From an uncultured Lachnospiraceae bacterium (GTDB lineage: Bacteria; Bacillota; Clostridia; Lachnospirales; Lachnospiraceae), in NCBI GenBank assembly GCA_965645705.1, contig CBFFWQ010000011.1, positions 1 through 64,000 on the forward strand: a stretch of 64,000 bases of DNA, in the 5' to 3' direction. Within the stretch, counting starts at the first letter, position 1. Every line of letters starts with the position of its first letter. The translations under genes and the position numbers were made by a program. Positions 12,924-39,863 of the stretch are shown here, in pieces. The notes under the pieces are model-generated. The model saw nothing but the letters and a program-made list of their open reading frames with translations. It made no database searches and was not told the origin of the DNA.

Positions 12924-13370
12924 CTACAGGAAAGCATTAACAGTCCTTGCACATGTTGAATCATCAGAGGTTCTGGAAGAACTAGAGGTTTCAGCATTGG
13001 CAGAATTATGATTTTTATACGAATCGAATTGTTGCTGAAATACATCTTCAACATATTGACTTTTAAGGTCATCAGGAATCCCCATCACACCCATACTCAT
13101 TAAATCCTCAACTGAATAATCAGGAAGAATTCCGTACTTCACAAATGGCATAATCCATTCCTCAATCGCCTCTTGTTTTGTCAAGTTAAATCTTTTTAGG
13201 GAATATGGTGACATCCGATCTAAAGCCTCCGATAATAAAATAGGTATAAAATAATGTTTAAGTAAACCTGTACAATTAGTGAATGTTTTACCTAAAGCTA
13301 AAGGATTTACAGAACTAAGTTCAGCAACTTGCTCATCACTAAGACTTAAATTAAAACAAGAAGTATACAT
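12924..13370 (-). CDS. Hypothetical protein ending ...CARTVNAFL (member of the VNAF-tail set)
   Basis: ORF with the shared C-terminal motif. Confidence 0.4.
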   Translation of the reverse strand: MYTSCFNLSLSDEQVAELSSVNPLALGKTFTNCTGLLKHYFIPILLSEALDRMSPYSLKRFNLTKQEAIEEWIMPFVKYGILPDYSVEDLMSMGVMGIPDDLKSQYVEDVFQQQFDSYKNHNSANAETSSSSRTSDDSTCARTVNAFL

Positions 13371-13412
13371 ATCCTCGGTCTGTTCCGTACACTCAATATC
13401 GTAAACCTTTTT

Positions 13413-13850
13413 TTAACTTATACAACAATAATACATTAACTGACGACTGCACTCTGGTACAGGATCAAAAATAGCACCTTCTTCCAACACACTGCAACCA
13501 GAGAACATTTCGTCACAATTAACTACAGTTGATGGAATACTACCAGCATTTACTAAACTCTTACAACCATGATACATATTACTTGTATCCAACACACCAT
13601 TTGGTAATTCTGCTGCTTGTGTTAAAAAACAACTAGAGTAAAAAGTGCAATTGCAATAAACTACACTGTCGGGAATAAAAGGTGGCATTACTAATTTAGA
13701 ACCCCTGAAAGTATCTGATAAATCAATAACACCGTTTGGAATAACAATCTTAGAACCATCTGTTTCATTACCGATATAAACAGATTTTTGCAACCATAAA
13801 AATTTTGAATTGAGTTTCATCATAATCAAAAACTCCCAATTCACCTTCAT
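13413..13850 (-). CDS. BspA-type leucine-rich-repeat protein (short)
   Basis: Repeats of IPNGVxxLxxxFxGCxSL type. Confidence 0.45.
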   Translation of the reverse strand: MKVNWEFLIMMKLNSKFLWLQKSVYIGNETDGSKIVIPNGVIDLSDTFRGSKLVMPPFIPDSVVYCNCTFYSSCFLTQAAELPNGVLDTSNMYHGCKSLVNAGSIPSTVVNCDEMFSGCSVLEEGAIFDPVPECSRQLMYYCCIS

Positions 13851-14278
13851 AATGTTTCATAATAAATTACCTACCTTTCTCAAAATACAATTAATAATAG
13901 ATACTTGATACACATGAGGTTTCAGTACCTGCAACTCGTGAGCATAATGTGATTGCCTACATACAAGCAGTCTTCCAAACCCACTAAACAAAATAAATTA
14001 GACCTGTTTAGAAACTTGCTTCTACTAATCTAAAGGGTACAAATTCCGAATACGCCAGCAAAACAAGAATTACCAAACACACCTATTACCTTACGTTCCA
14101 CCCAACAATAAGTTACTGAATTAAATACAACAACCATTCTTTGAAACTAAAGGAATAGTTGACGAGCTATTAAACTCAATCAACTAAGAATTTCCTAATA
14201 ACTGCAAACTGCAGTATCAGACCTAAAGACTGCAAAAGAAATCCCAGCACCTACTTGAAAGATGCTGGGGATACAATA

Positions 14279-14983
14279 CTATAGACAACTGGCACAAAAT
14301 ACACCAAAATTCTGGAACATTAACTCCAACCGATCAATAATCTTCTCTGTATGATAATGACCACAATACCACTTCTTATAATCAAGCTTTTCTTCTATCC
14401 GATCTAACCATTCTTCGGTAGATTTATCAACTTTACTTTGGTCTATTCCTTGCAAGAATACTTCTACAGGCTCATACTTTAATGGAGTTGTATGCGACAA
14501 GACAACATCTATTTTCCAATCACAAACATCTAATTGCTGTTCTACAACTCTCTTAATTTCTTTGGAGGGTTGTTCATCTTCCCACCACGGATACCCATAA
14601 GCAAGCCTCAGCGACTTATCTACACTGTAAGCACCACCGATAACAATAGTCTTTAAACCATTAAAATCAAAAATTTCTCCGTCTTTACCAAACAGTATAT
14701 TAGGATACTCTTTCTCCACATAAACTTTACCACCACGCCAATCCATCTCTTTATAAGAAGGAATAGTAGCGGGTCGTTGCTCATGATTACCATGAATGCA
14801 AAACAATATTATAGGCATGGCAGCTATAAAACGTTTTGTAGCCTCATCTCGGAAACCGCCACTAAAATTAATACCTGCATCACCGAGAATAATCAGAACA
14901 TCATCAATAGAAGTTCCAACTTTTCTACAAAAATTAAATACACGACCAAAATCGCCGTGTGTATCTCCCGTTATATAAATCAT
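14279..14983 (-). CDS. Calcineurin-like metallophosphoesterase
   Basis: MIYITGDTHGDF, ILGDAG, GNHE and GHYH motifs. Confidence 0.65.
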   Translation of the reverse strand: MIYITGDTHGDFGRVFNFCRKVGTSIDDVLIILGDAGINFSGGFRDEATKRFIAAMPIILFCIHGNHEQRPATIPSYKEMDWRGGKVYVEKEYPNILFGKDGEIFDFNGLKTIVIGGAYSVDKSLRLAYGYPWWEDEQPSKEIKRVVEQQLDVCDWKIDVVLSHTTPLKYEPVEVFLQGIDQSKVDKSTEEWLDRIEEKLDYKKWYCGHYHTEKIIDRLELMFQNFGVFCASCL

Positions 14984-15285
14984 CCAATCACCTACTTTCT
15001 ACAGAACAATAGAAAAGAATCCTGTCGTAAATACCTCATTACAATAATCACAATTTACGATTTTCGTAAATGCTATAAACTTCGAACTCCTCTTCTGGAA
15101 AACTAGCAAATCTAAAGACTCAGGAAAACTCATCTTGCTCAAATGTTCTACAATTCCTTACAGCACTACTTCTAATTTCCCCAAATCAGAAGCTTTATCC
15201 TTTTACGAAACTAAAGTCACTCATGCTAAAGTAGTCGGTATACAGAAACAACGCAACGCTCATCCAAAACTAAAGGACGCACCAT

Positions 15286-15322
15286 AAAAGAAAACGGGTA
15301 GCCGCTGTTACACGACTACCCG
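15286..15322 (-). terminator. Rho-independent terminator (CGGGTAG...CTACCCG stem with the same GCTGTTACACG loop as the 11355 and 54564 terminators) just downstream of the tRNA
   Basis: Hairpin followed by TTTTCTTTT in gene sense. Confidence 0.5.
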
Positions 15323-15602
15323 ATACACGATTAATTTAGAAAACTATAGCCTACAATACAGCCATGTGGAAACTCAAGACTATACGGTTCTAGCACAACC
15401 ATACTCATGGATTTCGATACCAATACGATATCTACAAAACAATTTACAAATCACGAAAAACTATTGAAGACAAAACAAAAAACAAAGAACAGAAAACCGA
15501 AAACAATTGACGAAAAACAAAAAATTATCCAAATGCACGAATAAGAACATCCTACTTGCCAAGCAAGTCTCATGCTTACACTGTACATTAATCACTATTC
15601 GG

Positions 15603-15677
15603 CTTTGAAAAAGGGATTTGAACCCTCGACCTTTTGATTAACCATCAAACGCTCCAACCAGACTGAGCTATTTCGAA
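15603..15677 (-). tRNA. tRNA-like gene with anticodon GUU (Asn) if the loop is read canonically. It has an atypical G at position 33 and a C-A mismatch in the acceptor stem.
   Basis: Reverse complement folds as acceptor TTCGAAA/TTTCAAA, D-arm GCTC-AGTCTGGTTG-GAGC, anticodon stem TTTGA/TCAAA with loop TGGTTAA, T-arm GAGGG-TTCAAAT-CCCTT. 75 nt; no encoded CCA. Confidence 0.5.
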
Positions 15678-15748
15678 AAAAAAACTGTGGAATAATCCCT
15701 CCACAAGGGAGAACCGAATTTAGAGTTTTCGTATTGCAGGCAAATTAA

Positions 15749-16399
15749 TTAAAATTCAATCATTGTTGTAGCATTAGAAACCTTGATCTTAGTATCTAAT
15801 TCTTGTAATAAACTATCTCTGCTATCAACTAAAGACTCAATCTTTTTCTTCAAATCTAAAGGATCAACGAACTCAAAGCTATTCTCCCGTACATACACTT
15901 CCACAGGCTCCAAAAGAGAATTATCTTCTTTCACTTTAGAATCCTTGCCAAGAATACTATTTCGCATTACTTCTGCAGAAGACTGTACTCTCTGATTCTC
16001 ATTATTCACAATTCTAACTGCATTATCATAAGCCTCTGTCATCTTCTTGATAAGAAGTGAATCAAAATCCGTAACAACAGAAGTTTCTTTTAACCTCGTT
16101 CTTAAGGCAATCGCTGCTGCTATACTGCATCTACCAGACGAAAGTTCGATAAAAGTATTAGCATTAGAATTAATAATAGCAGCATCAAGTCGTTGATACC
16201 TCTCAATCAAATCCTGTATCTGTTGAAGCTGCGAAATGGCATTTTGCTCGAATTCTTTGCGAGGAATAAGGTTTGTTGATACCTTTTCCTCATTATGACG
16301 AATAGTACCAATAAAATTTGCACCCTTAATCTTGTTTGAAATCTTCTTCACAAGCAAATCTCTTTCATCAAGGGCTTGCGTTACTAACATCTGTTCCAT
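15749..16399 (-). CDS. Hypothetical coiled-coil-rich protein
   Basis: ORF only. Confidence 0.35.
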   Translation of the reverse strand: MEQMLVTQALDERDLLVKKISNKIKGANFIGTIRHNEEKVSTNLIPRKEFEQNAISQLQQIQDLIERYQRLDAAIINSNANTFIELSSGRCSIAAAIALRTRLKETSVVTDFDSLLIKKMTEAYDNAVRIVNNENQRVQSSAEVMRNSILGKDSKVKEDNSLLEPVEVYVRENSFEFVDPLDLKKKIESLVDSRDSLLQELDTKIKVSNATTMIEF

Positions 16400-16690
16400 C
16401 TTTTTACCACCTTTCTACTATCGAAAAATAAATGCACTTTTCCAAAATCAATAATTTATTTGCACATAAATTAAAAATACTTTTTTTATTGTTTTCACGC
16501 CGTTGATTTTAATTAAAAATTTTATGTTTTTTTCAAAAATTTTGTATTTTCTTCAAAAAAAAAAAGATTTCGTTATACTTACGAAATCTCCGAGTCACGA
16601 CACAAAGGTAAGAACCTAAGCACAAAACCCTATCATAAACAACAATACTGCAACTTACAAATGCACAGAATCTAAAAGTAATCAAGTCTG

Positions 16691-16888
16691 CTAATCAACA
16701 GACTTTTCACCTAAATGAGCTAAAGTATCATGCAATGTCTGCTGAGCATTAACTTCCTTCGTTTCTACTGTATCGAAAATAGAAAATACAAATACGCAAA
16801 CAAAAATAACGAAAATGATAAGAATATCTAAAACTACCTTACTGCTTTTGCTACTTTTTTTCATAATAATCACCTCTAATGCTTTCAA
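16691..16888 (-). CDS. Small single-TM membrane protein
   Basis: Begins MKKSSKSSK followed by a 25-aa hydrophobic helix. Confidence 0.25.
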   Translation of the reverse strand: MKALEVIIMKKSSKSSKVVLDILIIFVIFVCVFVFSIFDTVETKEVNAQQTLHDTLAHLGEKSVD

Positions 16889-17798
16889 AAATTACGGAAC
16901 TTTCTAGATTGTGTATTCACAGTATGCGTGAAGTTAGGAAATTCTTGCAAGAAAGAGAAATTGCAGATCTTTTCGTAATAAAAATGTAATATGATTTCAA
17001 AACTAAAGATATCGAAGAGAAAATCTGAACAGAGTCGGAAAAACATAAATACTACACACAATAGATTACTGATATGATAAAAGACATGATTTTAATCCAT
17101 AGGTGAGAATCTAAAGAGAGTCTTTATACAAAATAGGGTAAGAATCTAAAGCCTATAATATGGTTTTAATCATAATACTTTATTCTCTTCCTATACAAGA
17201 ATAGTAATTACTGCGAACTATCCGTTACCTAAAGTAAAGGTAATGGGCTTCTAAGAGGCTAACAACTCTATTTAAGAAGTTTGATATTTATGTTTACATC
17301 TGATAAGTCAGACAATCCTTATTCTCAGAGAAGTGTCCACTTCTCATCTACCGTATAATATGTAGTACTTTCCATGAAGGAAAAGTATCCCAAGCACAAC
17401 GCTACTTTTTCTTGTAAGCTGTATGACTATTTTTTACAGAAGGCTAACTGACATTTAAAATTTTACGTACTGTACGGCTAGACAGTACAAACACCCATTT
17501 TAACTTGCCAAAGTACAATAGAATGTGCTTATATTTGTATCACGCCATATAATTCTCAGAAAAATAAATTTTTTGTAATGCCATTCAAGCCATGATCTAA
17601 AGACATGGCTTTCTGACTGAAACTTTATAAAATTAAAGAAATAAAATTTCCTGAAAATAATAATGTAAAGAAATGTATATCAACGATAAGATTTAAAGAT
17701 GATACAGAATAAAACTTACTTTTCTTCAAAGACAGTTTTGGAGTAAAATAAATCTAAAGAAGGGCATTAATTCCATTGGCTCTATTAGAATTTGTAAA

Positions 17799-18002
17799 TT
17801 ATTGAGATTCCTCTGTTATTTCCATTAAAAGATTAAGGTTATATGGTTCTTTTCCTCTACCTATAATTAGCTCCTGATACTTTTGCTCATATAAATCCTC
17901 ATCAAATTGTGTAAAAGTTTCATCAGATGCAACATGGGACTGTCTTTCACAACAGGAAATAAAATCAGTACCAAGAAGACAAGAAAGCTCGTCTGCTTTC
18001 AT
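17799..18002 (-). pseudogene. Fragment of the retropepsin-like protein family (LLGTDFISCCERQSHVASD matches LLGADFISCCQWQCNIASD of the 34190 ORF)
   Basis: Local similarity to the C-terminal half of 34190..34774. Lies in an otherwise ORF-poor region. Confidence 0.35.
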
Positions 18003-18423
18003 TTCATAGTGCGGTCGTGCACATCACTTTATACTAAGCGGTTATGTTTTTCGACCGCTAGTATAGTAACATTAAATTTATGATTACTATCATCTATTTC
18101 GTAGATCAATTCTTTTAACATAGTAGCACTTAGAATCATACTAAATGAAACTGCTGTATCACTATTAGATATCACAGGTAAACTTGGAAACATTAAATCA
18201 CCAAGTTCAAACATAATTCGATATAAATTTCTCGTAGCTATGCCACTGAAGCCTGTAAAAGAAACATTTTTTACCAATTTAGCATTAAATTTTTCTAATA
18301 ATATCCTTTCATTTGCTGTCCAAACTGGGAAATAAGCTACAGTATCTAAAAGAACTCTTAGCCCATCTTATAATTTTATTACAGGACGTTGTTGCGTAGC
18401 ATCCAAATTTAATGTAAATTGCT

Positions 18424-18660
18424 TCATCCATGTACCCTCACCATACCTAATTGAAAGACATTATCTGGAGTAGTATACACAGCATCAACCTCTCCTTCGA
18501 TTGCCATTACTGTCAATTCATCTTTTGATTTTTCCGTGTACTTTACAACAGCAGATTCTACAGAAACTACATCATCATTTACATACCTCACATCAACCAA
18601 ACCTACCCACCTGTCAGGGTACTTTTCCTGAATTTGTTTCCATGTTAATCTTTCTTCCAT
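18424..18660 (-). CDS. Hypothetical small protein
   Basis: ORF only. Confidence 0.25.
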   Translation of the reverse strand: MEERLTWKQIQEKYPDRWVGLVDVRYVNDDVVSVESAVVKYTEKSKDELTVMAIEGEVDAVYTTPDNVFQLGMVRVHG

Positions 18661-19280
18661 AAATTACCTCCATTCTAAATAGTACGTTATCGGCTTCTCA
18701 TTCATTCTATCACAGTATTGTATTAAATTCCATAAAAAAATTACAAATTATTTTTGCTTTCAAAATGAAAAGAGAATCCAATACAATTAGCGTGTATGCC
18801 TTTTAATGACTAAATTTAAAATAGAGGAACGTTGACTATTACTTTTATGTAAAATTACAGTCTAAACTTCGGATACCTTTTGAATACAAGAAAAAGAATT
18901 ATTAAAGGTACTGTTAGCTACATCAAAATCATATTTCTTATAGCAATCCAATAAAAGTATAGCGTATTGCTAAATGCAAATTATATTATTTTCAATTTGT
19001 ATAATGCTGTTTAAATTTTTATTTGATTGCTATAAAAGCAATGAAAAACTGACCTAAAGAGCCAAGCAGAATATCGCAATCATCACTACTCATACACAAT
19101 TCACTATAATGAATTTTTAAATACTTTTCATTCTTATGATTTTATCTATCAACTTTTCTACATCTTTAGAGTCGATTTTTACCCACTGAGGTGCAGACTT
19201 AAAGGATTCCACTTGATGATTTTGTAAAAATACCATACACTGTTTTGCATTATGCTGAATCATCATTGCGTTTTTCCAAT

Positions 19281-19460
19281 ACCAGAACCACTGACTACTC
19301 CCACAGGCAAACTTGTGGTGTTCTCACTACCAAGCATAGTTCGTAATCGTACATCATTTTCAGACGTTGGAAGTACAAATATAAATCTATTTGAGTGAAA
19401 ACTTTTATTATCAAGCAGTCCAACGACCACATATTCAGAATAAACGCATAAACGGAAACA
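19281..19460. repeat. Direct repeat copy A (about 150 bp, roughly 85% identical to 20262-20420). Has a conserved small hairpin with a compensatory substitution.
   Basis: By-eye alignment. Hairpins are CCACAGG...CTTGTGG (A) and CCACAGG...CTGTGG (B). Confidence 0.6.
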
Positions 19461-19630
19461 ATTGCACAAAAAGACATTTTTGTTTATTTTACTAAAATTG
19501 AGTTAAAGTTTAACTATAACTTAAATTACAATATTCCCTACCATATTATCGCAGAAATTTCACGAAAATTACCAAAAAAATATGTAATAATATGCTTCTA
19601 TTTTCAGCAAACATTTTTCGCAAAAATGCC

Positions 19631-19660
19631 TTGACATGGGCGTTGGTAGCAAGGTATAAT
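19631..19660 (+). promoter_or_regulatory. Consensus sigma-A-type promoter (TTGACA, 18 nt, TATAAT) driving the plus-strand small ORF
   Basis: TTGACA at 19631-19636, TATAAT at 19655-19660, then AGGGAGG SD 8 nt before the ATG at 19691. Confidence 0.6.
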
Positions 19661-19690
19661 GAAAACAGTTAATGAAGGGAGGCGACAATT

Positions 19691-19900
19691 ATGAAATCAA
19701 AAAGTTTTATCGTTGGAATTGTACTATTTTTATTAGAAGTTATAGATATAATAATTTTAAATTCTATATGCTTAGAGATTGCCGCTGGAACGACAAGCTT
19801 ACTCACCATCCTTGCATCAATGCTTTTATGGATTCCTGCCTTTGTTTTTATATACATCTCGGCAGTATACCTTATAAGAAAATTATTCTGTAATTGCTAA
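19691..19900 (+). CDS. Small (69 aa) two-TM hydrophobic protein (holin-like or type-I-toxin-like)
   Basis: Strong promoter and SD. Two predicted TM helices. Bracketed by the direct repeats. Confidence 0.5.
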   Translation: MKSKSFIVGIVLFLLEVIDIIILNSICLEIAAGTTSLLTILASMLLWIPAFVFIYISAVYLIRKLFCNC

Positions 19901-20261
19901 GCCCTAATGAAATGTACTAGAGTGACTACTGCTTTAAAAAATAAAATTCATAAAACAGTAGTCACTTTTGCACGCACTCATTGTTGTGCATTCATTCTGT
20001 AACTAATCTTCTATTCTCTATTTTATATGATAGTGATTGCATAAAAGCTTCGTTACAAAACTAAAGAAATAAAATTCCCTATAAGCAATAGACTTAACAT
20101 CACTTGGTGTTAATGCCTACCTTACAAGGAAATAAATTATTCTGTTGTACCAGAAAATAATCTTTAATTTAAAAAGTTTTTCTTGCGATCTTGAATAACA
20201 GAATCTAAAGGTTTATAAAACTTCTCCAACCATCTACAACAGAAAACATTTTATTTATGAA

Positions 20262-20420
20262 TTGACCACTCCCACAGGCTAGTCTGTGGTGTTCTCACTA
20301 CAAAGCGTAGCTCGTAATCGTACATCATTTTCAAATTTTGAAAATACAAGTGTAAATCTATTTTGAATGAAAACTTTCATTACCAAGCAGTCCAATAACC
20401 ACATTAACAGTAACTTTCTG
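20262..20420. repeat. Direct repeat copy B (partner of 19281-19460)
   Basis: See copy A. Confidence 0.6.
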
Positions 20421-20614
20421 CCTTTCGACAAAGAAGTATAGTCAACCTCCATGAATATTTAAGCTGTTTTAGATTATGTGTTTATTCTAATTGTTAATTA
20501 AAAGTGGCTTTCGCCCAATACGCAAGCATGAGAGTTTTTCTCCACGAAATTATAATAACAACCAAAAAACTCAAACTTTCTGCAATACTCATAAATTTAC
20601 TTTGTAGCAATTCC

Positions 20615-21364
20615 TTAAAAGGCATTTACTCCATGAGCCTTGCCATCCTGACTATTCGCTACAGCTCTGGTATAAGATTTATAATTGTATCGTGTTACAA
20701 TAGACTCTATCTCTGCCAATGAAGACTCTAGTGCTAACTGCACAAATCTAGGCATAGCATTGTTAAGGAAACCTTGCTCTAATGCATTCCTTGCACTTTC
20801 TGTACAGTAAGATAAATTATAACCTAAAGAATCAATAGTTTCCAGCATTACTTCAAACATATTCATAGGCATAGTGATGTTTAACAAGCTAATCTTTTCT
20901 TGAATTAAAGACTTTAAGACTGGACGCACTTCACACAACCTGCTACGCATTTCTCTTACTTCCTCACTTGATGGAATTACTATAGTAACAGATTTTGCAA
21001 ATAATACTTGAGACACATACAAAACTGCAGCAGGTATTAAACCATTGCTACCATCACAATTGAAAGTAACATCACGCTGCAAAAAAGTGTCAAAATCTTC
21101 CGCTACAGGTGCTTTGTTCACAGCACGTTGAGCTCTCTTTGGCATCTGTTCTCGACCAAAATCATCGTCAGAATCAACTCCTACATCATCTAAAGTATGA
21201 TCCCAATACAACTGCTGAATCTCACACTTCTTCACTAATTCTACAAACTGAGCATACGATACGAAGAATGGATCAGCGTTATCCATAACACCGCCCTCTT
21301 TAATAAAGAAACCTACTACCTGACCGTCTTCTTTTACAGTTCCAACTTCATGATACCTTTTCAT
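20615..21364 (-). CDS. Hypothetical protein ending ...DGKAHGVNAF (VNAF-tail set)
   Basis: ORF with the shared C-terminal motif. Confidence 0.4.
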   Translation of the reverse strand: MKRYHEVGTVKEDGQVVGFFIKEGGVMDNADPFFVSYAQFVELVKKCEIQQLYWDHTLDDVGVDSDDDFGREQMPKRAQRAVNKAPVAEDFDTFLQRDVTFNCDGSNGLIPAAVLYVSQVLFAKSVTIVIPSSEEVREMRSRLCEVRPVLKSLIQEKISLLNITMPMNMFEVMLETIDSLGYNLSYCTESARNALEQGFLNNAMPRFVQLALESSLAEIESIVTRYNYKSYTRAVANSQDGKAHGVNAF

Positions 21365-21448
21365 AAAAACCTACCTTTCATAATCACGATTTCTAAATTA
21401 ACCTATCAATGCTAATATACAGAACGAACCTAAAGGTTAATGCTATGA

Positions 21449-22030: not shown

Positions 22031-22144
22031 AGCATCCTCCAAAACTACCTATAAAAGCAAAAGCCACGACAAATGAAATCCCCCAATGAATACACTGAAA
22101 AAATTTCATTTGTCGTGGCTTCTACCACAAAAACTGCCTAAAAA

Positions 22145-26295: not shown

Positions 26296-26907
26296 CTATT
26301 TCTTTAAAAAAGCAAAGCAGGATTCCGCACCATTTTCAACTGACGAATTGTCTGATCCTATCTTATCAAGCAATGAACACAAATCTAAAGATTGGTGCTC
26401 TAAATCATAATTTGTTATCCTTTTGAAATATGCTTCATAGGATTCAGAATTAAAGGATTCTATTACTATATCACCATTAGTATGATGAGCATAATTACAA
26501 TGATGTAAAAAATCATTGCCAAGTAAAGAATCTTGCGACTTTTCATTTGGCACAAGAAAAAAATAAAATCATTTGATAATCTTTTTGTCTAATAGAACAT
26601 TATTTAAATGACATAGGTATCCAGTAATCTGATCACCAGAAGCTGATCTTGGTTCTACTCTTAAACAAGAAGAATTCTTTAATTGATTAATAATCTCATC
26701 TTTATGTTTCATATATTCATGATGACGTAAAAACTCTTTTAAAGTAATGATAGTTTTGCTCGCACCTGTATCAAAAAACATTTGTACATCATTAAAATTT
26801 TCCTGAAATGATAACAAAACATCATAAGCATTATAAGGTTTATTGTATTTTACAATACACTGTTGCAATGAATTCACCACCTTTCGACAGAATACAAGCC
26901 TTACCAC
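26296..26907 (-). pseudogene. Retropepsin-like (clan AA) aspartic peptidase paralog split into two ORFs (26569..26907 with FFDTGAS and 26296..26553 with LLGNDFL)
   Basis: D(T/S)GA active-site motif and downstream GRD-like motif lie in separate frames 16 nt apart. Paralog of 34190..34774. Confidence 0.4.
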
Positions 26908-28889: not shown

Positions 28890-30420
28890 CCAAATCTAAA
28901 GTTTGCACACTGGACAAACTTTGATACAACTGTCTCATGTCCATCTACTCTATCTTTGCCTACTCTGATTCTGATACCAGTACCATTTGCCCACAACCAT
29001 AAAGTACGATCATTCTTCCCTTCAAGCAGAAGCACACTCTTCTTGTTTCTTTTATTCACGTTGGCTTGTCACACTCTGCAATACCTCTCAGGAACTGTCA
29101 AAAATTAACTTTTAAATTTGAGGTTTGATAACATAGTTCCATTTTCCAAGTGTTTCACAGGGAAAAATGTTAATTCTAGCTAATTCGTCATCCGATATCT
29201 TGTGCCCGGTTTCATATACTTTCTCATCAAGCTGGCAGGTAATGGACAATCCTTTTTCTGTTGTTGTATTTGATATTAAACTGATTATTGTTTCAATATC
29301 AATCAATGGATGCCCCTGCCAATTTTTTGAAATATAACAGAACATCCTGTGTTCTATTTTGTTCCATTTTGATGTGCCGGGCGGATAATGGGAAACCATG
29401 ATCTCAAGTCCTGTATCATTGACCAACTGCTGTAATTCGTATTTCCAGTTGCGGCTATCGGAACCGTTGCTCCCACTACCATCACACGTGATATAAATTC
29501 GTTTTGCCGCAGGAAATGTATTTTTTCCAACAGCATTCCACCAACACGAAATACTGGTTACCGCAAATTCCGATGTGTCATGGCTGGTTCCGAGGTTCAC
29601 AAAACCAGTATTGTTATTGAGGACATAGACCCCGTAAGGTGCCACCTTTCCTAATTCAGGTATCGGGAAATCATGATCCAGTACTTTGCGAGGATTTTTT
29701 TCTTCTCTGTATTCTGCACCAGCGTTCTTGAAATTGCCAATGTTCTCTTTTTTCTTTGTGTCAACAGAAATAACTGGCTCCCCGTTCTCCAGATACTCGT
29801 GGGCAGTATGGTCAATCAATTCAAACTGTTTATTACGGTCTGGACTCGGTATGCCGACTTGTTCCATTTTTTGGTTCACCTGTTTGCTGTAGCCCATTTC
29901 TGCCAAAAGCTGTGATATCTTTTCATGACTTACCGTTATGGAATAATCCTCTTCGAGGATATCCCTGATTTGGCGGAGGCTGAGAGTAGATGCAACCCAG
30001 TGCAGTTCTCTGGAAGGATCGCCATATGTGCTGCCATCAATTATTTTTTCGATGGTCTCTGTGATGTTTGGATAGGTCTCCGTGATTGGTTTACGACCAG
30101 CACCTTCTTTGCGGATTCTGCTATCCGAAATAACCTCATCATTCTCGGAATCAGCCTTTCCAACAGTCAGGGTTGGATATGAGATGCCGGTTAATTCAAC
30201 AATGTGAGCCTTTCCACCGCTGCCATATACATCCGCAGCTTTACTCAAAAGGATCCGCTTACTTTTTTCATCTGATAACTTATTTATTAGCGAAACAAGT
30301 TCGTCAAATGAAGCTATATTTATAATATTCATGGCATACTGCTCCTTATCTAATCTATAAAAAGAGTATACTATAATATGCCATGATTTAAAAGTTATTT
30401 ATTGACAATTCCTCAGTAGC
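28890..30420 (-). mobile_element. ISAzo13-family insertion sequence, about 1.5 kb, visibly higher GC than its flanks
   Basis: Contains the transposase ORF. The compositional shift starts near 28890 and ends near 30400. Terminal IRs not resolved by eye. Confidence 0.55.
29112..30332 (-). CDS. ISAzo13-family DDE transposase
   Basis: 406 aa. Matches the Rhodopirellula-type DDE transposase layout (YPPGTSKWNKIEHRMF and other motifs). Confidence 0.75.
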   Translation of the reverse strand: MNIINIASFDELVSLINKLSDEKSKRILLSKAADVYGSGGKAHIVELTGISYPTLTVGKADSENDEVISDSRIRKEGAGRKPITETYPNITETIEKIIDGSTYGDPSRELHWVASTLSLRQIRDILEEDYSITVSHEKISQLLAEMGYSKQVNQKMEQVGIPSPDRNKQFELIDHTAHEYLENGEPVISVDTKKKENIGNFKNAGAEYREEKNPRKVLDHDFPIPELGKVAPYGVYVLNNNTGFVNLGTSHDTSEFAVTSISCWWNAVGKNTFPAAKRIYITCDGSGSNGSDSRNWKYELQQLVNDTGLEIMVSHYPPGTSKWNKIEHRMFCYISKNWQGHPLIDIETIISLISNTTTEKGLSITCQLDEKVYETGHKISDDELARINIFPCETLGKWNYVIKPQI

Positions 30421-30842: not shown

Positions 30843-31000
30843 CTACCTTTTATTTGTTCAGAAACTAAAGTACAATACTTCACCGCACCTGTAATACCAA
30901 ATTGTGATATTTTGCTCTGCACTATTTTACGAATTTTCTGCCTCACATACAAAGCAAACCTAAAGGCTAGTGAATACAACTAAGCACTCGCTTTTATCCA

Positions 31001-32897: not shown

Positions 32898-32946
32898 TCT
32901 CTACCATTGCTCTATACAATAATCTTTTTATTATGCTACTATCTCT

Positions 32947-33396
32947 TTAATCGTCTAACTTACAAACAAGAATCTCCACGCTTGTCTCTTGGAACACCTG
33001 CTGAATCTGCTCCGAAACCTTATCCCATGGCAGCTTATCCAAGCCAGCTCCAATAGTAGGCATTGCAATTTTCTTGATTCCATTCTCTTTACAAATACTT
33101 TTCATTTTCTGTAAAGCAAGTCTCATAGTAATAATACTTGGTTTTTCATAATACCGTTCTTTTGTAATTAAATTTAAAACCCTGCCTTCAAGGATACAAT
33201 CGCCACCAATACGACACCTATTATAATAACTATGATAATCTGGATACTTTTCCAACAGGCAGTTTTTCATATCAAACCTCTTGTTAAACTCTACAACGAT
33301 TCCCTTGCCCATACCAAAATCTGCACTGATGCAATGTGCCAAAAAATAATCTTCACTGACACTAAACAAGTTACACTTTCTTTCTTCGTACTGCAT
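32947..33396 (-). CDS. Macro-domain protein (ADP-ribose binding/hydrolase)
   Basis: HCISADFGMGKGIV and IAMPTIGAGLDKLPW match macro-domain signature regions. Confidence 0.7.
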   Translation of the reverse strand: MQYEERKCNLFSVSEDYFLAHCISADFGMGKGIVVEFNKRFDMKNCLLEKYPDYHSYYNRCRIGGDCILEGRVLNLITKERYYEKPSIITMRLALQKMKSICKENGIKKIAMPTIGAGLDKLPWDKVSEQIQQVFQETSVEILVCKLDD

Positions 33397-33400
33397 AACA

Positions 33401-33856
33401 CTATCCCTTCTTTCTTACAGGAATCCAAATCTCACAAGAATCCTTTGATGGATAATACTCGAGATCCCAACCTTTCACAACTTCGTATTCTTTATCATCA
33501 CAAGACAGAAATTCCCTTTTGATACAATCCCATGCATTCTGTACTGCAACAGAAGTAGAAGCTTCAAAACGAAATACAGCCCATGTCTGCTCTGGCAAGC
33601 AGAATTCCTGGAAACCTTCTGGCACATCATCAGCATCCTCTGCATACAAACCAATACCGTACTTAAACACTTCTTCGCCATTGTTTGCACAAACACCAAA
33701 ATAACAAGACACCTCTTTACCAATCTGCTTTTTGTGATGTGCATCCCACAATGCTGGAATTCCCTCCTTGCGAGTTTCCTCATTAAAATCCTCAAAATAA
33801 ACGAACAATTTTAATTCATCTTTGTTCTCAATACGACAATCCATGATAAATACCAC
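33401..33856 (-). CDS. GyrI-like (AraC effector-binding-type) small-molecule-binding domain protein, co-transcribed with the macro gene (5-nt gap)
   Basis: YFGVC...GIGLY...WAVFRF...EIWIPV pattern. Confidence 0.55.
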   Translation of the reverse strand: MVFIMDCRIENKDELKLFVYFEDFNEETRKEGIPALWDAHHKKQIGKEVSCYFGVCANNGEEVFKYGIGLYAEDADDVPEGFQEFCLPEQTWAVFRFEASTSVAVQNAWDCIKREFLSCDDKEYEVVKGWDLEYYPSKDSCEIWIPVRKKG

Positions 33857-34189
33857 CTTTCACTAAAAAGAGCAAATGTTAAAATACACTGCCTAACTAC
33901 TGGCACGATAATGAACTAAAGGACTTTTCAAGTACAGACACTGCAATCCACTAACTGCCAAAACAATACTGAAACAACGCCAAATAAAACAGTGACGATT
34001 AAATCACTGTTTTCATGAAATACAATTTTATAAATAATACGCAGAATTTCTATCTGTAAGTTCAGTATTACTCTGTTTCAATCTTTTAACTGCAAAATAA
34101 TTCTAATTTAAAGGAACTTCATTAAATAGTATCAGTCAAATCATTATTTTCTTTTAAATAAAATAATAGTACAACAATGTAAATCGCCA

Positions 34190-34774
34190 TCAATTATTAT
34201 CTTTTGTATTTCCGAAAGCATTCACTCCTGATGCATAATTATTATGATCACTAAAAATAGTATTTTGAAATGGTAAATCTAAAGAATTGAGGCTACAGAT
34301 TTGTTCTTCACTGGTATGTTGAAAAGGATTATTATAACGATAGTCATCAAATGCTGTAACTATAATATCACTTGCAATATTACACTGCCACTGACAACAC
34401 GAAATGAAATCTGCTCCCAACAATGCAGAAGGATTTACTCCGTCAGGAGTAAGATAGAAATAAAATTTTTGAATATAATAATTCCCTATTTTAGCATCTT
34501 TTATGTAACAAAGAGTTCCTATTCTTTCTTGACCAAAAACTGCTTTAAACTTTTGTTTTAAAAAGGAGCTATTATCTAAAATATTTTCCAATTCTTTTCT
34601 TTCTTTAGATGTCCAATATTCAAAATTAAGTAAAGCTGCATAGGAAATCATAGTAAGTTTCGCTCCTGTGTCAAATTTAAGTAATAACTGATTATATGAT
34701 TTATGAAAGGCATTTGTTTGTACAGCATAAGAATTTTGCTTTTCATAATACTTAGCTCTAAATAACTCATTCAA
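34190..34774 (-). CDS. Retropepsin-like aspartic peptidase (FDTGAK plus LLGADFI) ending ...SGVNAFGNTKDNN (VNAF-tail set)
   Basis: DTGA motif, downstream GxDF motif and the shared C-terminal tail. TTG start in the ORF track. Confidence 0.5.
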   Translation of the reverse strand: MNELFRAKYYEKQNSYAVQTNAFHKSYNQLLLKFDTGAKLTMISYAALLNFEYWTSKERKELENILDNSSFLKQKFKAVFGQERIGTLCYIKDAKIGNYYIQKFYFYLTPDGVNPSALLGADFISCCQWQCNIASDIIVTAFDDYRYNNPFQHTSEEQICSLNSLDLPFQNTIFSDHNNYASGVNAFGNTKDNN

Positions 34775-35144
34775 CAGATGTCACCTCCACATCGGGATAT
34801 CCAGGTAAATAAGAATAACCTTTGTCAGAACTTTGTTCATTTCGACACAAATGTACAAGTCTATTATTAAACTCTTTACTTACTGACATGGCAAAAACAT
34901 ACGCATAATCAGAACCACCAGAATATATCAAGCTATTACGATCATTAAGAAAAAAAGCCCAAAGTCCAAAATCAATTTTTAAAGGGTGCTTAAAAATTCG
35001 CAAACCTTGCTCTTCGTAATAATTATTGGAATCAAAAATCACATCCCCTTTATCATCAAAAACAGCATCCACACTCATAGAATCTACTTCATCTAAAGTA
35101 ACACTACTTAAATCATCTAACATAATAATCATCTCTTTCTTCAA
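34767..35144 (-). CDS. Hypothetical protein
   Basis: ORF only. Confidence 0.3.
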   Translation of the reverse strand: MKKEMIIMLDDLSSVTLDEVDSMSVDAVFDDKGDVIFDSNNYYEEQGLRIFKHPLKIDFGLWAFFLNDRNSLIYSGGSDYAYVFAMSVSKEFNNRLVHLCRNEQSSDKGYSYLPGYPDVEVTSVE

Positions 35145-35283
35145 TAATTATTCTTAATTAACAATTAATGTCTTGTGAAACTTCTTACAGTTTACAACTA
35201 TTATATCTTAATGTCAAGATTCAATACACTATGAATAAAATATCAACAAACCAAAATTCAACAATGACCAATTCCCATCACTA

Positions 35284-36021
35284 TTACCCCATATGCCTAC
35301 AACCATAAACGCAACCTGAGACACTCTCTAATACATCTGCAAAAACGGAATTTACCCCATAATCCTTGTAGAAAATATACTCACAATCAAAAAATTCCTG
35401 AAATAATTCAATACAACTGGAAGAGAATTCCTCAAAGAATCTTATCCCTTTTTCGTAATTGTTTAAAAATACTTGATAAACAACCCTTTCAGGAAAATAA
35501 TAACTATCCATAGGTTCACAAAGATAAGATGTAATTACGTTTTCCATCTCTTTATAAGTAAGTACTCTAGTTAAAGGTTGATCTTTAGAAGAATCGTAAG
35601 TACTGTAAATTCTATGCAGAATAAGATCTAAAGCCAAGCAGGAAAAAAGCTTATGAAGTTGCTCATCAGTACAGTTCGCAATTAATTCTTCTATCATCTG
35701 TTCTTCCTTTTTTGTAAAATCTATTATCGAATTTCCATCGTATTCTTTACCTAAAGTTTTATCTACAAGTTCTTCATAATACCATTCAAAAATTTCGTCC
35801 ATGGTTTTGATATCGAGCTCTTTTACAGGAATCCAAAGATCTTCTAATTCTTTCAACATCTGAGTCCCTTGTTCATAATAATCTTCCCATAAATCATACT
35901 TATCTCTATCAAGTCTCTTTATTTCTTCCTTAATTTCTTTTTGCAGTTCTCCCATGGAAATAGACTTTTTAAAAATAAAAGAAGAACTACTGGAATTCGT
36001 AACAAAATCTGTCCTATACTT
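35284..36021 (-). CDS. Hypothetical protein (start trimmed to MKYRTDF, AAAGGAGAAGG SD 9 nt upstream), 8-nt overlap with the upstream gene
   Basis: Strong SD. The ORF-track extension into the upstream gene is an artefact. Confidence 0.4.
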   Translation of the reverse strand, partial: KYRTDFVTNSSSSSFIFKKSISMGELQKEIKEEIKRLDRDKYDLWEDYYEQGTQMLKELEDLWIPVKELDIKTMDEIFEWYYEELVDKTLGKEYDGNSIIDFTKKEEQMIEELIANCTDEQLHKLFSCLALDLILHRIYSTYDSSKDQPLTRVLTYKEMENVITSYLCEPMDSYYFPERVVYQVFLNNYEKGIRFFEEFSSSCIELFQEFFDCEYIFYKDYGVNSVFADVLESVSGCVYGCRHMG

Positions 36022-37099
36022 CATACAGAACCTTCTCCTTTCTATTGCACAAAACAATCTGTCTTCGAATAGGACAACCACCCATACACAAGACTCTATC
36101 TTTACACAAAGGGCAAGATTGCTTGAAGAATGATCTAAAGGGACAAAACTGAGGACTGTCCCATGCTTCTTTAATAGAATGATTGTGTAAGTCAAATCCC
36201 CACCGCAGCTCCTGATTATCAAAAGAACATGGCATGGCAATCAAATCAGCACTTACATACATAGACCATCTTCCGCCTTCACAAGTATCAATACTAACTG
36301 ACTCTACCTTTCGACAACAATTCACAATTCCAGGAACACTGCAACTGTCGAATCCTATTTTAAAAGGAAAATTCCCCCTATCTACCAGATGAAAAAACTC
36401 CCTAACTTTTACATCATGAAGTTTCAATACATTCTCTTCCATACCTAAACCTATTGGTTTATGAAGAAGAAAAATAACTGCATTAATCCCCTCTGGGAAA
36501 TCTTTCTTCTTCAGCCTATCTAAAGCTTCGTCAATAGAATTGTTTCCCAGTACATAATGAATATTTGTCTTAACACCCGCCTTGATAAGTGCCTGAATCG
36601 CATCTAAAATGTGCTGCTGCCGATACCAACTAATTGCTACTGCACCACAATACTGCTTACACAATTCTACAATTTTCTCAGTAAAACCAATGCCAGAGGA
36701 AGTGAAATTAGGTACAATATGATTCTTTTTACAACACTCTAATATTTCTTTGAAGTTTTCATGCTGGTCAACGTCACCCCTCCCACCTAAAGCAAACTGA
36801 AAAGTTTTGCCTCTGCATTCCCTTGCAAGTCTTTGGAACTCACTCAAAGACATATTAGGCTTTTGTACGTGTAAGCCGTCCTGATAACACTGCACTCCTG
36901 CCTTCATGCACAATACACTCTTACCATGCATACAGTGTCCCATGACACCAACATCAATAAGTTCTGGAAAAGATGCCATGAAAGGATCTTCTCCTGTATC
37001 TTTCCCATCTCTAATGATACCTATCCTGCAATACTCCCCTGTCTTTGTATTAAAAATAGAGACAAAATGATTCTCTTCATCCACTTTTCTGATAACCAA
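36014..37099 (-). CDS. Cys-rich protein with a C-terminal CxxCx5Cx3C (SPASM/twitch-like) cluster. Possible non-canonical radical-SAM/Fe-S enzyme.
   Basis: C-terminal CPLCKDRVLCMGGCP. No canonical CxxxCxxC found. Confidence 0.3.
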   Translation of the reverse strand: MVIRKVDEENHFVSIFNTKTGEYCRIGIIRDGKDTGEDPFMASFPELIDVGVMGHCMHGKSVLCMKAGVQCYQDGLHVQKPNMSLSEFQRLARECRGKTFQFALGGRGDVDQHENFKEILECCKKNHIVPNFTSSGIGFTEKIVELCKQYCGAVAISWYRQQHILDAIQALIKAGVKTNIHYVLGNNSIDEALDRLKKKDFPEGINAVIFLLHKPIGLGMEENVLKLHDVKVREFFHLVDRGNFPFKIGFDSCSVPGIVNCCRKVESVSIDTCEGGRWSMYVSADLIAMPCSFDNQELRWGFDLHNHSIKEAWDSPQFCPFRSFFKQSCPLCKDRVLCMGGCPIRRQIVLCNRKEKVLYEV

Positions 37100-37288
37100 A
37101 ATAACACACCCTCTCTATTACTTTTTAAGCTTGTTCTTTTGCTTCTTCAATGAGTACCTCTACTTAGCAAATCTAAAGGCTCATAAGTGTAATAGAATTC
37201 TTGTGACGTGCAACTACCATAGCCTAACACCAAACATCTCACCAGAGGCATTTCGTGTTTTAAATACCTCTGGCAGATAACTCACACA

Positions 37289-38743
37289 CTATTTCTGCAA
37301 TCTACGTAACAAATCCATCTTCACGGCATAATAGTCTGGAGTGAAATCTAAATAATGCTGATGTGGATTTTCAAAACGTAACTCTTCCTTCCACACTTCA
37401 TGCTGTAATTGATGCTGTACTTGTGCCCTAATTTCTTTCAAAGAAGGTGACCTATACACTAATTCACCATTTCTAAAAATCGGAACCTGTAATTTTCTTA
37501 CGGTGTAGTTCTCAAAAAACCTCTGTTTCCATGGCATAGCTGGATCCACATACCGAAAAGGCTTCGTAAAATTAAGACATTCACTCTGTTTTCCAATTAA
37601 ATCAGCGATGGATCTACCATACTCATCGTAAATTCTGTAAACACTTTTTAAACCCGGATTCGTAATCTTTTCCACATTCTCTGAAATTTTAATACGTGGA
37701 ATAAAAGTAAGTCCATGTTTTGCCACTGCTGCCAGCTTATACACTGCACCAAAAACGGAATCACTCTTAGCAGTAATCAAACGTTCTCCAACACCAAAAA
37801 CATCAATAGCCGCATTTTGATTAACTAAAGAAGCAATTGTAAATTCATCCAGACTATTGGAAACAATCACCTTGCAATCAGACATACCAGCGTCCATTAA
37901 CATCATAGTGGCTTTCTTTGATAAATAAGCTAAATCTCCACTATCGATACGAATCCCCTTGAGCCTCTTACCTTGTGGTTCCAATACTTCTTTTGCTACT
38001 TTAATTGCATTCGGTATACCACTTTTTAACACATCATAAGTATCTACCAATAAAACACAAGCATCTGGATAAATTTCTGCATACTTCTTAAATGCGGTAT
38101 ACTCATCTTCAAAATACATTACCCAACTATGTGCCATTGTACCCGATACAGGAATCCCAAAAGTCTTTCCTGCCAGTACAGTCGCAGTACTATCTACGCC
38201 ACCAATATAAGCAGCTCTTGCACCATAGACAGCTGCATCTGCATTGTGAGCACGCCTTGCACCAAAATCAGAGACTATTCTTCCCTGAGCTGCACGAACA
38301 ATACGGCTTGCTTTTGTAGCAATTAAAGACTGATGATTTACCTGTAACAAAATTGCTGTTTCAATTAACTGAGCGTCAATCAAAGGAGCGACTACCGTAA
38401 TCACTGGCTCATTTGGATACATCACGGTTCCCTCTGGAAAAGCGTACACATCGCCGCTAAATCTAAAGTTCTGCAAATAACTTAAAAACTCTTCCTTGAA
38501 AATTTTCTGCTCACAAAGATACTCAATATCATCTTCCTCGAAATGAAGTTCCTGTATATACTCAATTATTTGTTGTAACCCAGCAAAGATAGCATAACCA
38601 CCGCCATCGGGATTCTTTCTATAAAATACATCAAAAGCCACACGCTGCTCACTTTTTGCTTGACTGCTATTAAAATAGCCATTACTCATGGTTAATTCAT
38701 AAAAATCCATGAGCATAGATAAATTCCTTTCGTTGTTTTTCAT
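37289..38743 (-). CDS. pncB: Nicotinate phosphoribosyltransferase
   Basis: LMDFYELTMSNGYF N-terminus, FGARRA, SGTMAHSW, 484 aa. AGGGGA SD. 11-nt gap from pncA. Confidence 0.85.
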   Translation of the reverse strand: MKNNERNLSMLMDFYELTMSNGYFNSSQAKSEQRVAFDVFYRKNPDGGGYAIFAGLQQIIEYIQELHFEEDDIEYLCEQKIFKEEFLSYLQNFRFSGDVYAFPEGTVMYPNEPVITVVAPLIDAQLIETAILLQVNHQSLIATKASRIVRAAQGRIVSDFGARRAHNADAAVYGARAAYIGGVDSTATVLAGKTFGIPVSGTMAHSWVMYFEDEYTAFKKYAEIYPDACVLLVDTYDVLKSGIPNAIKVAKEVLEPQGKRLKGIRIDSGDLAYLSKKATMMLMDAGMSDCKVIVSNSLDEFTIASLVNQNAAIDVFGVGERLITAKSDSVFGAVYKLAAVAKHGLTFIPRIKISENVEKITNPGLKSVYRIYDEYGRSIADLIGKQSECLNFTKPFRYVDPAMPWKQRFFENYTVRKLQVPIFRNGELVYRSPSLKEIRAQVQHQLQHEVWKEELRFENPHQHYLDFTPDYYAVKMDLLRRLQK

Positions 38744-38754
38744 CTTGATATCCC

Positions 38755-39285
38755 CTATGCAATTTTAATCTGGCAAGATGCCATTGTTTCTAAAGCTGCT
38801 TTATGTTTTTCTGGCGTTACACCTGCACAGCACTTGCTATCAACACTAATAGGAACTTCTGGAAGAAATGCTTTCAACAGAAGAGCATTAGAAACTACAC
38901 AAATATCTGTACATAATCCAATCAGCTCCACACTCTCTGGGTTCAAGCTTTTTACATCTAAAGCCAGATTCGTGCTACCAAAAGTTTCTTTCTTGTAAAT
39001 AGGACAATCTGCCAAAAGATCTCTTACTACTGGGTGCAGTTGCCAGCCTTCTTCTCCTTCTTTGCAATGCTCTACAGGTAACAATTTTCCTTCTTGAGTG
39101 AATTTATAATTCTCATGATGTGTATCCATTGTTACATAAATTTGATAATCTTCTGCTTTGCACTTCTTAATCTTTTCTACTACTGCCTGAACAATGCCCT
39201 CTGCTTCCTTAGAACCTAAAGAGCCTGTGATGAAATCATTTTGAAAATCCACTACGATGAGTACTTTGTTTCCTTTCTTTTTCAT
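38755..39285 (-). CDS. pncA: Nicotinamidase / isochorismatase-family hydrolase
   Basis: VLIVVDFQNDFITGSL, catalytic Cys context GLCTDICV, 176 aa. Confidence 0.75.
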   Translation of the reverse strand: MKKKGNKVLIVVDFQNDFITGSLGSKEAEGIVQAVVEKIKKCKAEDYQIYVTMDTHHENYKFTQEGKLLPVEHCKEGEEGWQLHPVVRDLLADCPIYKKETFGSTNLALDVKSLNPESVELIGLCTDICVVSNALLLKAFLPEVPISVDSKCCAGVTPEKHKAALETMASCQIKIA

Positions 39286-39341
39286 AATTTTTACAATTAA
39301 AAACTGATAACCACCAAGCAGCTATCAGTCTAAATATTATA

Positions 39342-39863
39342 TTATTTAATTTTCTTATCTCCAAATGCATTTACTGTATTCGCTTTTTCAAATGAGGAGG
39401 ATTTATCATTCGTATCTTTGATTTCGAAATCATCAGAAACATCTTCATCTATATCCAACATTTCAAAATCATCAAGAAATTCTATAATTTCAGAATATAA
39501 ATCATACCTTTCTTCAAAACATAATTCATAAACTTGATTAAAAGCATCTTTACTGTAGCTAATCAAGTAAGTTTTAATAAATTTATCAAAATCTCCTATA
39601 TTTTTCATTTCATGAACCAAAGAATTTCTCATATCTGTAAATGCAGTAGGTACTTTCGCTGAAATACGATTTTTCACACATTTATAATTTGCACATTTAT
39701 TTTCTTTATAACTGCAAACGAGCTGTATTGTTTCAAATAAGCGTATGATTAACAAAGTTAAAGTTGCCTCACAAGGAAAATCCCTAAAATCTCTTAAAGT
39801 TCTCGCAAGGACACGTTTAGCCTCAGAAACCTCCTCAAAAGCAACAACTTGCTTATTAGGCAT
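39342..39863 (-). CDS. HEPN-domain protein (Rx4H motif in MRNSLVHE) ending ...NTVNAFGDKKIK (VNAF-tail set)
   Basis: Rx4-6H motif in a predicted helical context, plus the shared tail. Confidence 0.45.
   Translation of the reverse strand: MPNKQVVAFEEVSEAKRVLARTLRDFRDFPCEATLTLLIIRLFETIQLVCSYKENKCANYKCVKNRISAKVPTAFTDMRNSLVHEMKNIGDFDKFIKTYLISYSKDAFNQVYELCFEERYDLYSEIIEFLDDFEMLDIDEDVSDDFEIKDTNDKSSSFEKANTVNAFGDKKIK

Follow-up and report, generated by a model that had tools for sequence, protein, structure and literature searches.

The SSB tail DDDIPF and the C-terminal tails of phage T7 gp2.5 and gp4 present a terminal phenylalanine on a disordered segment, where it works as a docking handle for several partners. 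Encapsulin cargo-loading peptides are another described case, exemplified by GGSENTGGDLGIRKL in T. maritima and LTVGSLRR in M. xanthus (PMC11190991). Proteins that bind the bacterial sliding clamp use the consensus QL(S/D)LF, which is placed at the C-terminus and tolerates variation (PMC9690074). Clamp motifs are common to unrelated proteins, toxins and transposases included (PMC9690074; see also PMC4549789). Here we describe a short C-terminal tail in a window of 64 kb, that is, the whole stretch of DNA analysed (positions 1 to 64,000 of contig CBFFWQ010000011.1, from an uncultured Lachnospiraceae bacterium). We take the window to belong to a large phage or mobile element from Lachnospiraceae-type Firmicutes. 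Four of its proteins carry the same seven-residue peptide at or near their ends. We consider it probable that this tail is a short linear docking motif, by which unrelated proteins would bind one common partner.

The four carrier genes are all on the minus strand. The p1 gene (12924..13370) encodes 148 amino acids that end in ...CARTVNAFL. Its tail reads ...SSSSRTSDDSTC-ARTVNAF-L, with the 7-mer at 12930-12950. The p2 protein (20615..21364, 249 amino acids) ends exactly in ...SQDGK-AHGVNAF, and its 7-mer is at 20618-20638. The p3 gene (34190..34774) encodes a retropepsin-like aspartic protease with the motifs DTGA and LLGADFI. It ends in ...YASGVNAFGNTKDNN, with the tail ...FSDHNNY-ASGVNAF-GNTKDNN and the 7-mer at 34214-34234. 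Finally, p4 (39342..39863) is a helical, HEPN-like protein with a conserved RNSLVH. It ends in ...KANTVNAFGDKKIK, and its tail is ...DTNDKSSSFEK-ANTVNAF-GDKKIK (7-mer at 39363-39383). The common unit is therefore A-x-[T/G]-V-N-A-F, found in 4/4 carriers as A-R-T-VNAF, A-H-G-VNAF, A-S-G-VNAF and A-N-T-VNAF. An earlier note on this DNA had reported four proteins with a C-terminal [GT]VNAF in common. These open reading frames (ORFs) are real and end as it described, and the unit is longer than it recorded. Examples of the tail peptide are EKANTVNAFGDK and SSFEKANTVNAFGDK.

The placement of the motif is not random. VNAF occurs five times in a six-frame scan of the window. Four of these occurrences are the in-frame tails, 0-7 residues before the stop, and the fifth lies in a non-coding frame of the plus strand. 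From composition, 0.14 VNAF are expected in 15,131 coding residues and 0.006 in the last 12 residues of the 68 proteins. The Poisson probability of at least four VNAF tails is ~5e-11. When residues were shuffled within proteins (n=2000), no 4-mer was found in four tails; the maximum was three, reached in 17/2000 shuffles.

The codons used for VNAF are GTT AAT GCT TTC, GTA AAT GCC TTT, GTG AAT GCT TTC and GTA AAT GCA TTT. Since the wobble positions differ and the DNA flanking the four tails is unrelated, the conservation is at the protein level. It does not come from a DNA repeat, as the earlier note had argued from the synonymous codons. The stop codons of the carriers are TAG, TAA, TGA and TAA. 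An alternative genetic code, which would make these C-termini false, was rejected. All three stops are in use across the window and no reassignment stands out or improves the ORF map, so the carrier ends are true C-termini. When the four carriers are compared by BLASTP, nothing but the tail is similar (best E 0.18, four-sequence database). The folds also differ, with a beta-rich retropepsin in p3 and a helical bundle in p4. The carriers are thus otherwise unrelated, again in line with the note, and their tails do not extend into a shared domain.

Behind the folded cores of p3 and p4, the tails sit on segments predicted to be flexible. The AlphaFold2 (AF2) model of p3 has a predicted local distance difference test score (pLDDT) of 89 overall and a folded core at residues 1-165. 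This score falls to 53-77 over the last 30 residues (166-194). The top Foldseek matches of p3 are Rickettsia APRc (PDB 5c9f among the top) and the FIV/HIV proteases. These matches, the DTGA motif and the AF2 fold bear out the retropepsin-like label that this ORF had received. In the p4 model, core residues 9-132 have pLDDT >90 and residues 139-171 have pLDDT <50. Its HEPN label, also given before, is plausible from the conserved R-x4-H (RNSLVH) and the helical bundle. However, it is unproven, as the best Foldseek HEPN matches have E ~0.6 and are not significant. Judging from these models, the tails of p3 and p4 presumably lie in a disordered segment behind the core. In p1 and p2, the linker is of low complexity and polar. 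Neither p1 nor p2 matches a family in Pfam or PHROGs, and PDB sequence searches gave nothing useful for them.

The tail is retained in diverged orthologs. Only two diverged orthologs of p2 were found (88% and 75% identity), and they keep the last 37 residues, including HGVNAF. The p4 orthologs (57-95% identity) end in VNAFGDKKIK, VNAFNSKNFK, KSNAF, KSSAF, ELNVF, NMELF and KGFGEN, and their linkers are rich in indels. The extension after the phenylalanine persists among them, with GDKKIK in P0001 and P0009 and NSKNFK in P0007. Thus, what the orthologs keep is a C-terminal hydrophobic-N/S/D-small-F, and what varies is the linker.

Within families, the tail is also gained and lost. The body of p1 has a 41%-identical homolog in a related contig (L016), which is fused to its leucine-rich-repeat (LRR)-type neighbour and has no tail. 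An exhaustive search with p3 recovered a retropepsin-like family of 166 clusters, and 133 near-full-length representatives were used for counting. The strict motif, [LIVM][NDSTE][AVSLCIF]F ending within the last 8 residues, is present in 14/133 against 2.2 expected. A loose motif is present in 25/133 against 8.8 expected; shuffles of the last 30 residues gave 7.7 on average and never more than 19 (n=1000). The tail-bearing members reach past the usual C-terminal helix of the family, so the tail is an add-on.

The motif is near-identical inside a lineage and differs between lineages. It is VNAF here, and KDLNAF, KNMELF and EDMSVF in L016, where other, unrelated ORFs, 5 of ~30, end in DLLAF, DLNAF, NMELF, DMSVFDQLEE and DMSIFPD. 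Across the relatives it can be written [L/A]-K-x-hydrophobic-[N/S/D]-[A/V/L]-F. In a hand-collected table of 33 tails, position -6 is L/A in 22, -5 is K in 14, -3 is M/L/V/I in 22, -2 is N/S/D in 23 and -1 is A/V/L/I in 27. The phenylalanine is terminal in 14 and followed by 1-7 residues in 19.

These results leave practically no probability for a tail without function, arisen by chance, from a DNA repeat running into the gene ends or by ordinary paralogy. The shortness of the motif favours such an origin, and nothing more. Against it stand the Poisson estimate and shuffles that never reach four tails, the different wobble positions and unrelated flanks, and the lack of anything common outside the tail. 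Orthologs also keep the motif across variable linkers. Chance, codon, BLASTP and ortholog tests have already refuted this explanation.

Other proteins carry variants of the tail. A second retropepsin-like paralog (26296..26907, minus strand) ends in ...SVENG-AESCFAF-LKK, with A at -6 and A-F at -1/0. It has one in-frame stop here and is intact, as the 190-residue P0039, in strains that lack the insertion sequence (IS) of this one (L001 4077-4649). The ISAzo13-type transposase (window 29112-30332) is found in this strain and in L002, and is absent from L001 and L003. These two have instead a 735-residue RNA-ligase/kinase gene and the intact second retropepsin. Just beyond the window end, upstream, a protein of 374 amino acids (L021 1162-2286) ends in ...SGSASLKIAFN and is a further variant carrier. 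A possible degenerate carrier, which we regard as uncertain, is a protein of 107 amino acids at 52012..52335 (minus strand) that ends in ...ELNKAFNTKVK (DGELNKAFNTKVK). The DUF1256 protein (53916-54467, ...GMLNAFNGMNLI) was not counted as a carrier. Its end is probably part of the fold, because a hydrophobic stretch precedes it instead of a polar linker. The helicase end ...NSQLSFG was likewise rejected as a canonical clamp motif. It aligns to an internal ALNIG of a homolog and therefore belongs to a conserved helix and is no tail.

Every carrier is encoded distally in a small, two-gene module. In the p1 module, the preceding gene encodes an LRR-type protein (13413-13850), the one that is fused to the p1 body in L016. 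Downstream of p1 come a small membrane protein and a Band_7/SPFH gene. The p3 gene is preceded by that of a 125-residue protein, and the same pairing recurs elsewhere. The p4 gene follows that of a small protein, which is fused to the p4 body in P0012 and P0013. These fusions suggest that p4 and the small upstream domain may be a functional pair, perhaps toxin-antitoxin-like. Two paralogous small proteins are encoded upstream of p4 (window 39856-40182 and 40311-40619).

A docking motif is the explanation that we hold probable. A disordered, polar C-terminal linker would carry the seven-residue peptide. Unrelated proteins would have gained this peptide independently, within a single family of large mobile elements or phages from Lachnospiraceae-type Firmicutes. 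The carriers would then bind the same groove on one partner and be recruited, loaded or regulated as a set. That the tail binds anything, and what it binds, we infer. The favoured partner would be encoded by the element itself, because the motif is near-identical within a lineage and different between lineages. A loading or sorting receptor, such as the capsid interior, another shell or a transfer apparatus, is a possible but doubtful partner. The MVP shell discussed below is included there and takes only a minor share. Next come a sliding clamp, the element's own retropepsin-like protease and a protease adaptor, in this order of probability, all taken up below. The rest falls to something else, for example the LRR proteins of the element. 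BspA-type LRR proteins are encoded at 55378-56799, at 13413-13850 and in L016 (3429-4316), in a cytoplasmic-looking context (PDB 4gt6, E 5.8e-9). They are candidate peptide receptors.

Several points weigh against a common docking function. No binding partner of the tail was identified in this analysis. Most carriers have no known function, so any reason for their joint recruitment is a guess. The loose motif is found in 6 tails of the window against 2.3 expected, an enrichment of only ~2.6-fold, and the case for the window therefore rests on the strict 7-mer. In the related contig L116, the tail is present on the retropepsin and in at most one weak match, a 65-residue ORF; multi-carrier sets are thus not universal. 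Finally, the 33 tails were collected by eye from positive cases and the phenylalanine anchors their alignment, so the table describes the motif and is no test of it.

The tail resembles a cargo-loading or a clamp-binding peptide, yet it does not fit the full definition of either class. The earlier note compared it with encapsulin cargo-loading peptides, and this is fair as an analogy. In both cases a short, conserved, lineage-specific terminal peptide is found on unrelated proteins behind a flexible linker (predicted by AF2 in p3 and p4). Both could also serve to find 'secondary cargo' elsewhere in a genome. However, A-x-[TG]-VNAF has no sequence resemblance to the LTVGSLRR and GGDLGIRKL types (PMC11190991). 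Encapsulin cargo is typically of the ferritin or peroxidase type, whereas the carriers are a protease, an HEPN-like protein and ORFans. No encapsulin/HK97-fold shell gene was matched by Pfam or PHROGs in the ORFs scanned; these cover ~73 kb, whereas the whole element has at least 275 kb. The SSB and T7 gp2.5/gp4 tails are also different. They are strongly acidic and need a free terminal phenylalanine, whereas the VNAF-type tails are polar or basic, with up to 7 residues after it. Moreover, the SSB-type tail is on one hub protein and the VNAF-type tail on many different proteins.

The earlier note had also placed an MVP-like shell in the same region and proposed that the tag may direct the carriers to or into it. 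The gene is real. It is at 737..3259 on the minus strand, encodes 840 amino acids when read from the ATG at 3259 and matches MVP_shoulder (6.7e-22) and Vault_3 in Pfam. It lies outside the interval of that note (12924-39863), 9.7 kb from the nearest carrier. We consider it very improbable that the tail is a cargo-loading peptide which sends the carriers into a vault-like shell of this homolog. In its favour are the presence of the MVP gene at that distance, the Band_7/SPFH gene next to p1 (another cage-forming fold) and a build like that of encapsulin peptides, being short, terminal, linker-borne and lineage-specific (PMC11190991). The window protein is 38-62% identical to MVP-like genes of phages and bacteria. 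Its closest relatives (58-62% identity) sit amid ordinary bacterial genes in Lachnospiraceae metagenome-assembled genomes (MAGs), which argues against the vault. There are 164 relatives in a GTDB scan, true bacterial chromosomes included, and at least 122 jumbo-phage contigs in IMG/VR, mostly of 100-240 kb. We searched 160 of these neighbourhoods, +-10 kb each (80 from GTDB with 1339 ORFs and 80 from IMG/VR with 2011, 3350 in total), and motif-matching tails occur there at the background rate, none of them with NAF behind a polar linker. In GTDB, 3/1339 ORFs end in [LIVM]N[AVSLIC]F, all of them spurious-looking. In IMG/VR, 15/2011 have the strict motif, about the chance rate; none is of the linker-plus-NAF kind, and no locus has a 4-mer common to at least three tails. 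Among the 342 ORFs of 14 phage-like MVP loci from Firmicutes, none has a linker-plus-NAF tail. No MVP was seen in the 15-20 kb readable of L016, L018/L119 and L116, which are relatives that bear the tail (tblastn for L016-L020; no MVP-sized ORF in the ORF and gene lists of L116 and L119). This co-occurrence test is weak, because it reaches +-10 kb and in the window just p1 lies within 10 kb of MVP. It may be weakened further by lineages that use other flavours of the motif. Targeting of cargo to vaults is known only from INT, a folded domain of ~160 residues in vPARP, and not from a peptide. The present tail shares with it an MVP homolog in the same element, and differs in being a 7-residue peptide. 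A preprint (10.1101/2023.11.10.566534) reports that homologs of vPARP and TEP1 were not found in the two MVP phages it studied. Of the idea of a sorting or docking tag, then, the protein-level tail on unrelated folds, the disordered linker and the retention in orthologs are supported, and the link to MVP is unsupported.

A sliding-clamp-binding motif is a rather unlikely alternative, in which the carriers would ride the beta-clamp of the host or of the element, as do the clamp 'tool-belt' proteins, the toxin SocB and IS transposases. The tails match the clamp motif in their pentapeptide scale, C-terminal position, disordered linker and unrelated carriers. They fit positions 2-5 of QL(S/D)LF in the hand-collected set, with a hydrophobic residue in 22/33, N/S/D in 23/33, A/V/L/I in 27/33 and F in 33/33. 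Many stand at the very end of the protein behind a flexible linker (F last in 14/33). The element encodes a DnaX-like clamp-loader subunit (58408..59925, minus strand; Pfam DNA_pol3_delta2 1.3e-43; ~45% identity to bacterial DnaX). In addition, the related contig L018 encodes a protein that has an NAD-ligase adenylation domain and, 24 residues from its end, ...SNAFNS.... However, the defining glutamine of position 1 (-4 in the tails) is present in just 1/33. Alanine is favoured at position 4, and the tails have an extra [L/A]-K at -6/-5. The classifiable carriers, an aspartic protease and an HEPN-like protein, are no DNA enzymes. No clamp gene was found within the ~73 kb readable, and none of ten neighbouring ORFs matched a clamp family at E up to 1. 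Lineage-specific flavours are also ill-suited to the highly conserved pocket of a host clamp. That the tail is instead a recognition or cleavage site of the element's own retropepsin-like proteases (VNAF↓G or VNAF↓L), autoprocessing included, is improbable. In its favour, the tail is present on both retropepsin paralogs and enriched in their family. With seven residues in extended form and an aromatic P1, the motif would suit the retropepsin cleft; retroviral retropepsin sites include TLNF↓P. Yet p2 and 14/33 tails stop exactly at F and therefore have no scissile bond, and the glycine at P1' in p3 and p4 makes a poor retropepsin substrate. The removal of 1-7 residues has no obvious purpose, and the AF2 monomer of p3 does not dock the tail confidently. 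Also in favour of such a site, RimB is reported to be a retropepsin-like protease of bacteria by which a C-terminal tail is trimmed (PMC11957791). The last alternative is a C-terminal degron that hands possibly toxic carriers to a host AAA+ protease and gives them a short or timed lifetime. It agrees with a non-polar end on a disordered tail and with potentially toxic enzymes, each distal in a two-gene module. However, ssrA-type degrons need their motif at the free C-terminus. In p3 and p4 there are 6-7 residues after the phenylalanine, and the extensions are kept in orthologs. The tail is also unlike LAA-type ends, and we give the degron little credence.

No relatives of p2, p3 or p4 were found in IMG/VR scans, and tblastn with p3 found none in phages and plasmids. 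A megablast of 22 kb of the window against INPHARED phages gave no match, and PHROGs and PADLOC returned nothing for the carriers and their neighbours. A metagenome scan with a trimmed p4 alignment found just two loci, both from lineages already seen. The 'Bacteriophage sp.' MT83xxxx contigs, reached through the DnaX-like and DarB-like genes, were rejected as pieces of bacterial chromosomes or unrelated elements. The same sequence as the window is present at the start of the 275,626-bp contig CBFEGA010000001.1 (GCA_965617245.1, an NCBI MAG).

All genes of the window are on one strand, and its GC content is ~34%. Most of the ORFs tested have no Pfam or PHROG match, and PDB sequence searches gave nothing useful for 3/4 further proteins of unknown function that were tried. 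The recognisable genes include MVP, Band_7, NAPRTase, PncA, ADP-ribosylglycohydrolase, Macro, PRTase_2/TRSP and StiP/PELOTA. They also include a SPASM protein, a zeta-toxin-like kinase, the DnaX homolog, DUF1256, one tRNA-Asn and the strain-specific IS. Downstream of MVP, ~700 bp (1-736) are free of ORFs; several independent assemblies break there and the 275-kb contig starts there. This segment may be a genome terminus or a repeat. Positions 16400-20600 are ORF-poor, with only ORFs of 49-82 amino acids called and no Rfam match, and adjoin the lone tRNA-Asn (15601-15677).

Other neighbours of the window deserve a mention. A set of the 'Ter-dependent stress response' type is found on related contigs, with PRTase_2/TRSP, StiP/PELOTA, radical-SAM/SPASM and RibD_C (window 40635-42817, 36014-37099 and 10575-11300). 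In L116 there are additionally TerD, vWA-TerF and a C-C bond lyase. A DarB-like antirestriction helicase of 1609 amino acids, without the tail, is encoded just upstream of the window (L021 4973-9802), and its C-terminus is at 63436-63969. DarB of phage P1 is packaged in the virion and injected. By analogy, this neighbour would fit a delivery of proteins along with the DNA of the element.

The MVP genes have neighbours of their own. In Firmicute MAG contigs they are repeatedly near NAD-salvage genes and a Metallophos phosphoesterase (L030, L031, L036-L039, L041, L043). The NAPRTase of L043 and L030 has 72% identity, and PncA is found in five MVP loci. In the window (737-3259, 37289-39285 and 14279-14983), this set is joined by an ADP-ribosylglycohydrolase and a Macro protein. 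A 2026 preprint reports ADP-ribose bound in the vault shoulder (10.64898/2026.05.01.722283). Given this report and the NAD-salvage neighbours, an MVP-NAD link may merit attention. A 462-kb MVP-encoding phage (L014, LR756500.1, 11589-17022) has six adjacent paralogs that end in NADDFG[F/M][F/L]DN or a close variant, an acidic-aromatic tail. These ends recall that of the archaeal and eukaryotic ribosomal stalk P protein, ...DDDMGFGLFD.

In its most ambitious form, which seems improbable to us, the tail would be the address label by which a huge phage or mobile element of Firmicutes sorts its proteins, through a system not described before. The 7-residue peptide would bring a set of potentially harmful enzymes, namely two aspartic proteases, an HEPN-like nuclease and ORFans, into a protein shell. 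This shell would be the vault-like MVP particle of the element or its capsid, and the purpose sequestration or delivery into the next host. Were this true for MVP, vault-type shells would have their first natural peptide tag, and there would be a first hint at the contents of MVP particles in prokaryotes or viruses. If the partner is the sliding clamp, the finding would be more ordinary. Even so, the clamp motif would then take in forms that lack the glutamine and would be found on a protease and an HEPN protein. As a docking tag, the tail would give a handle on an element that is otherwise ~70% unannotatable, since it would name proteins that act together. It would be a bait for their common partner and possibly a portable tag to load or recruit proteins. 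It would also allow a direct test for cargo in the MVP particles of bacteria or viruses, a question that concerns vaults in general.

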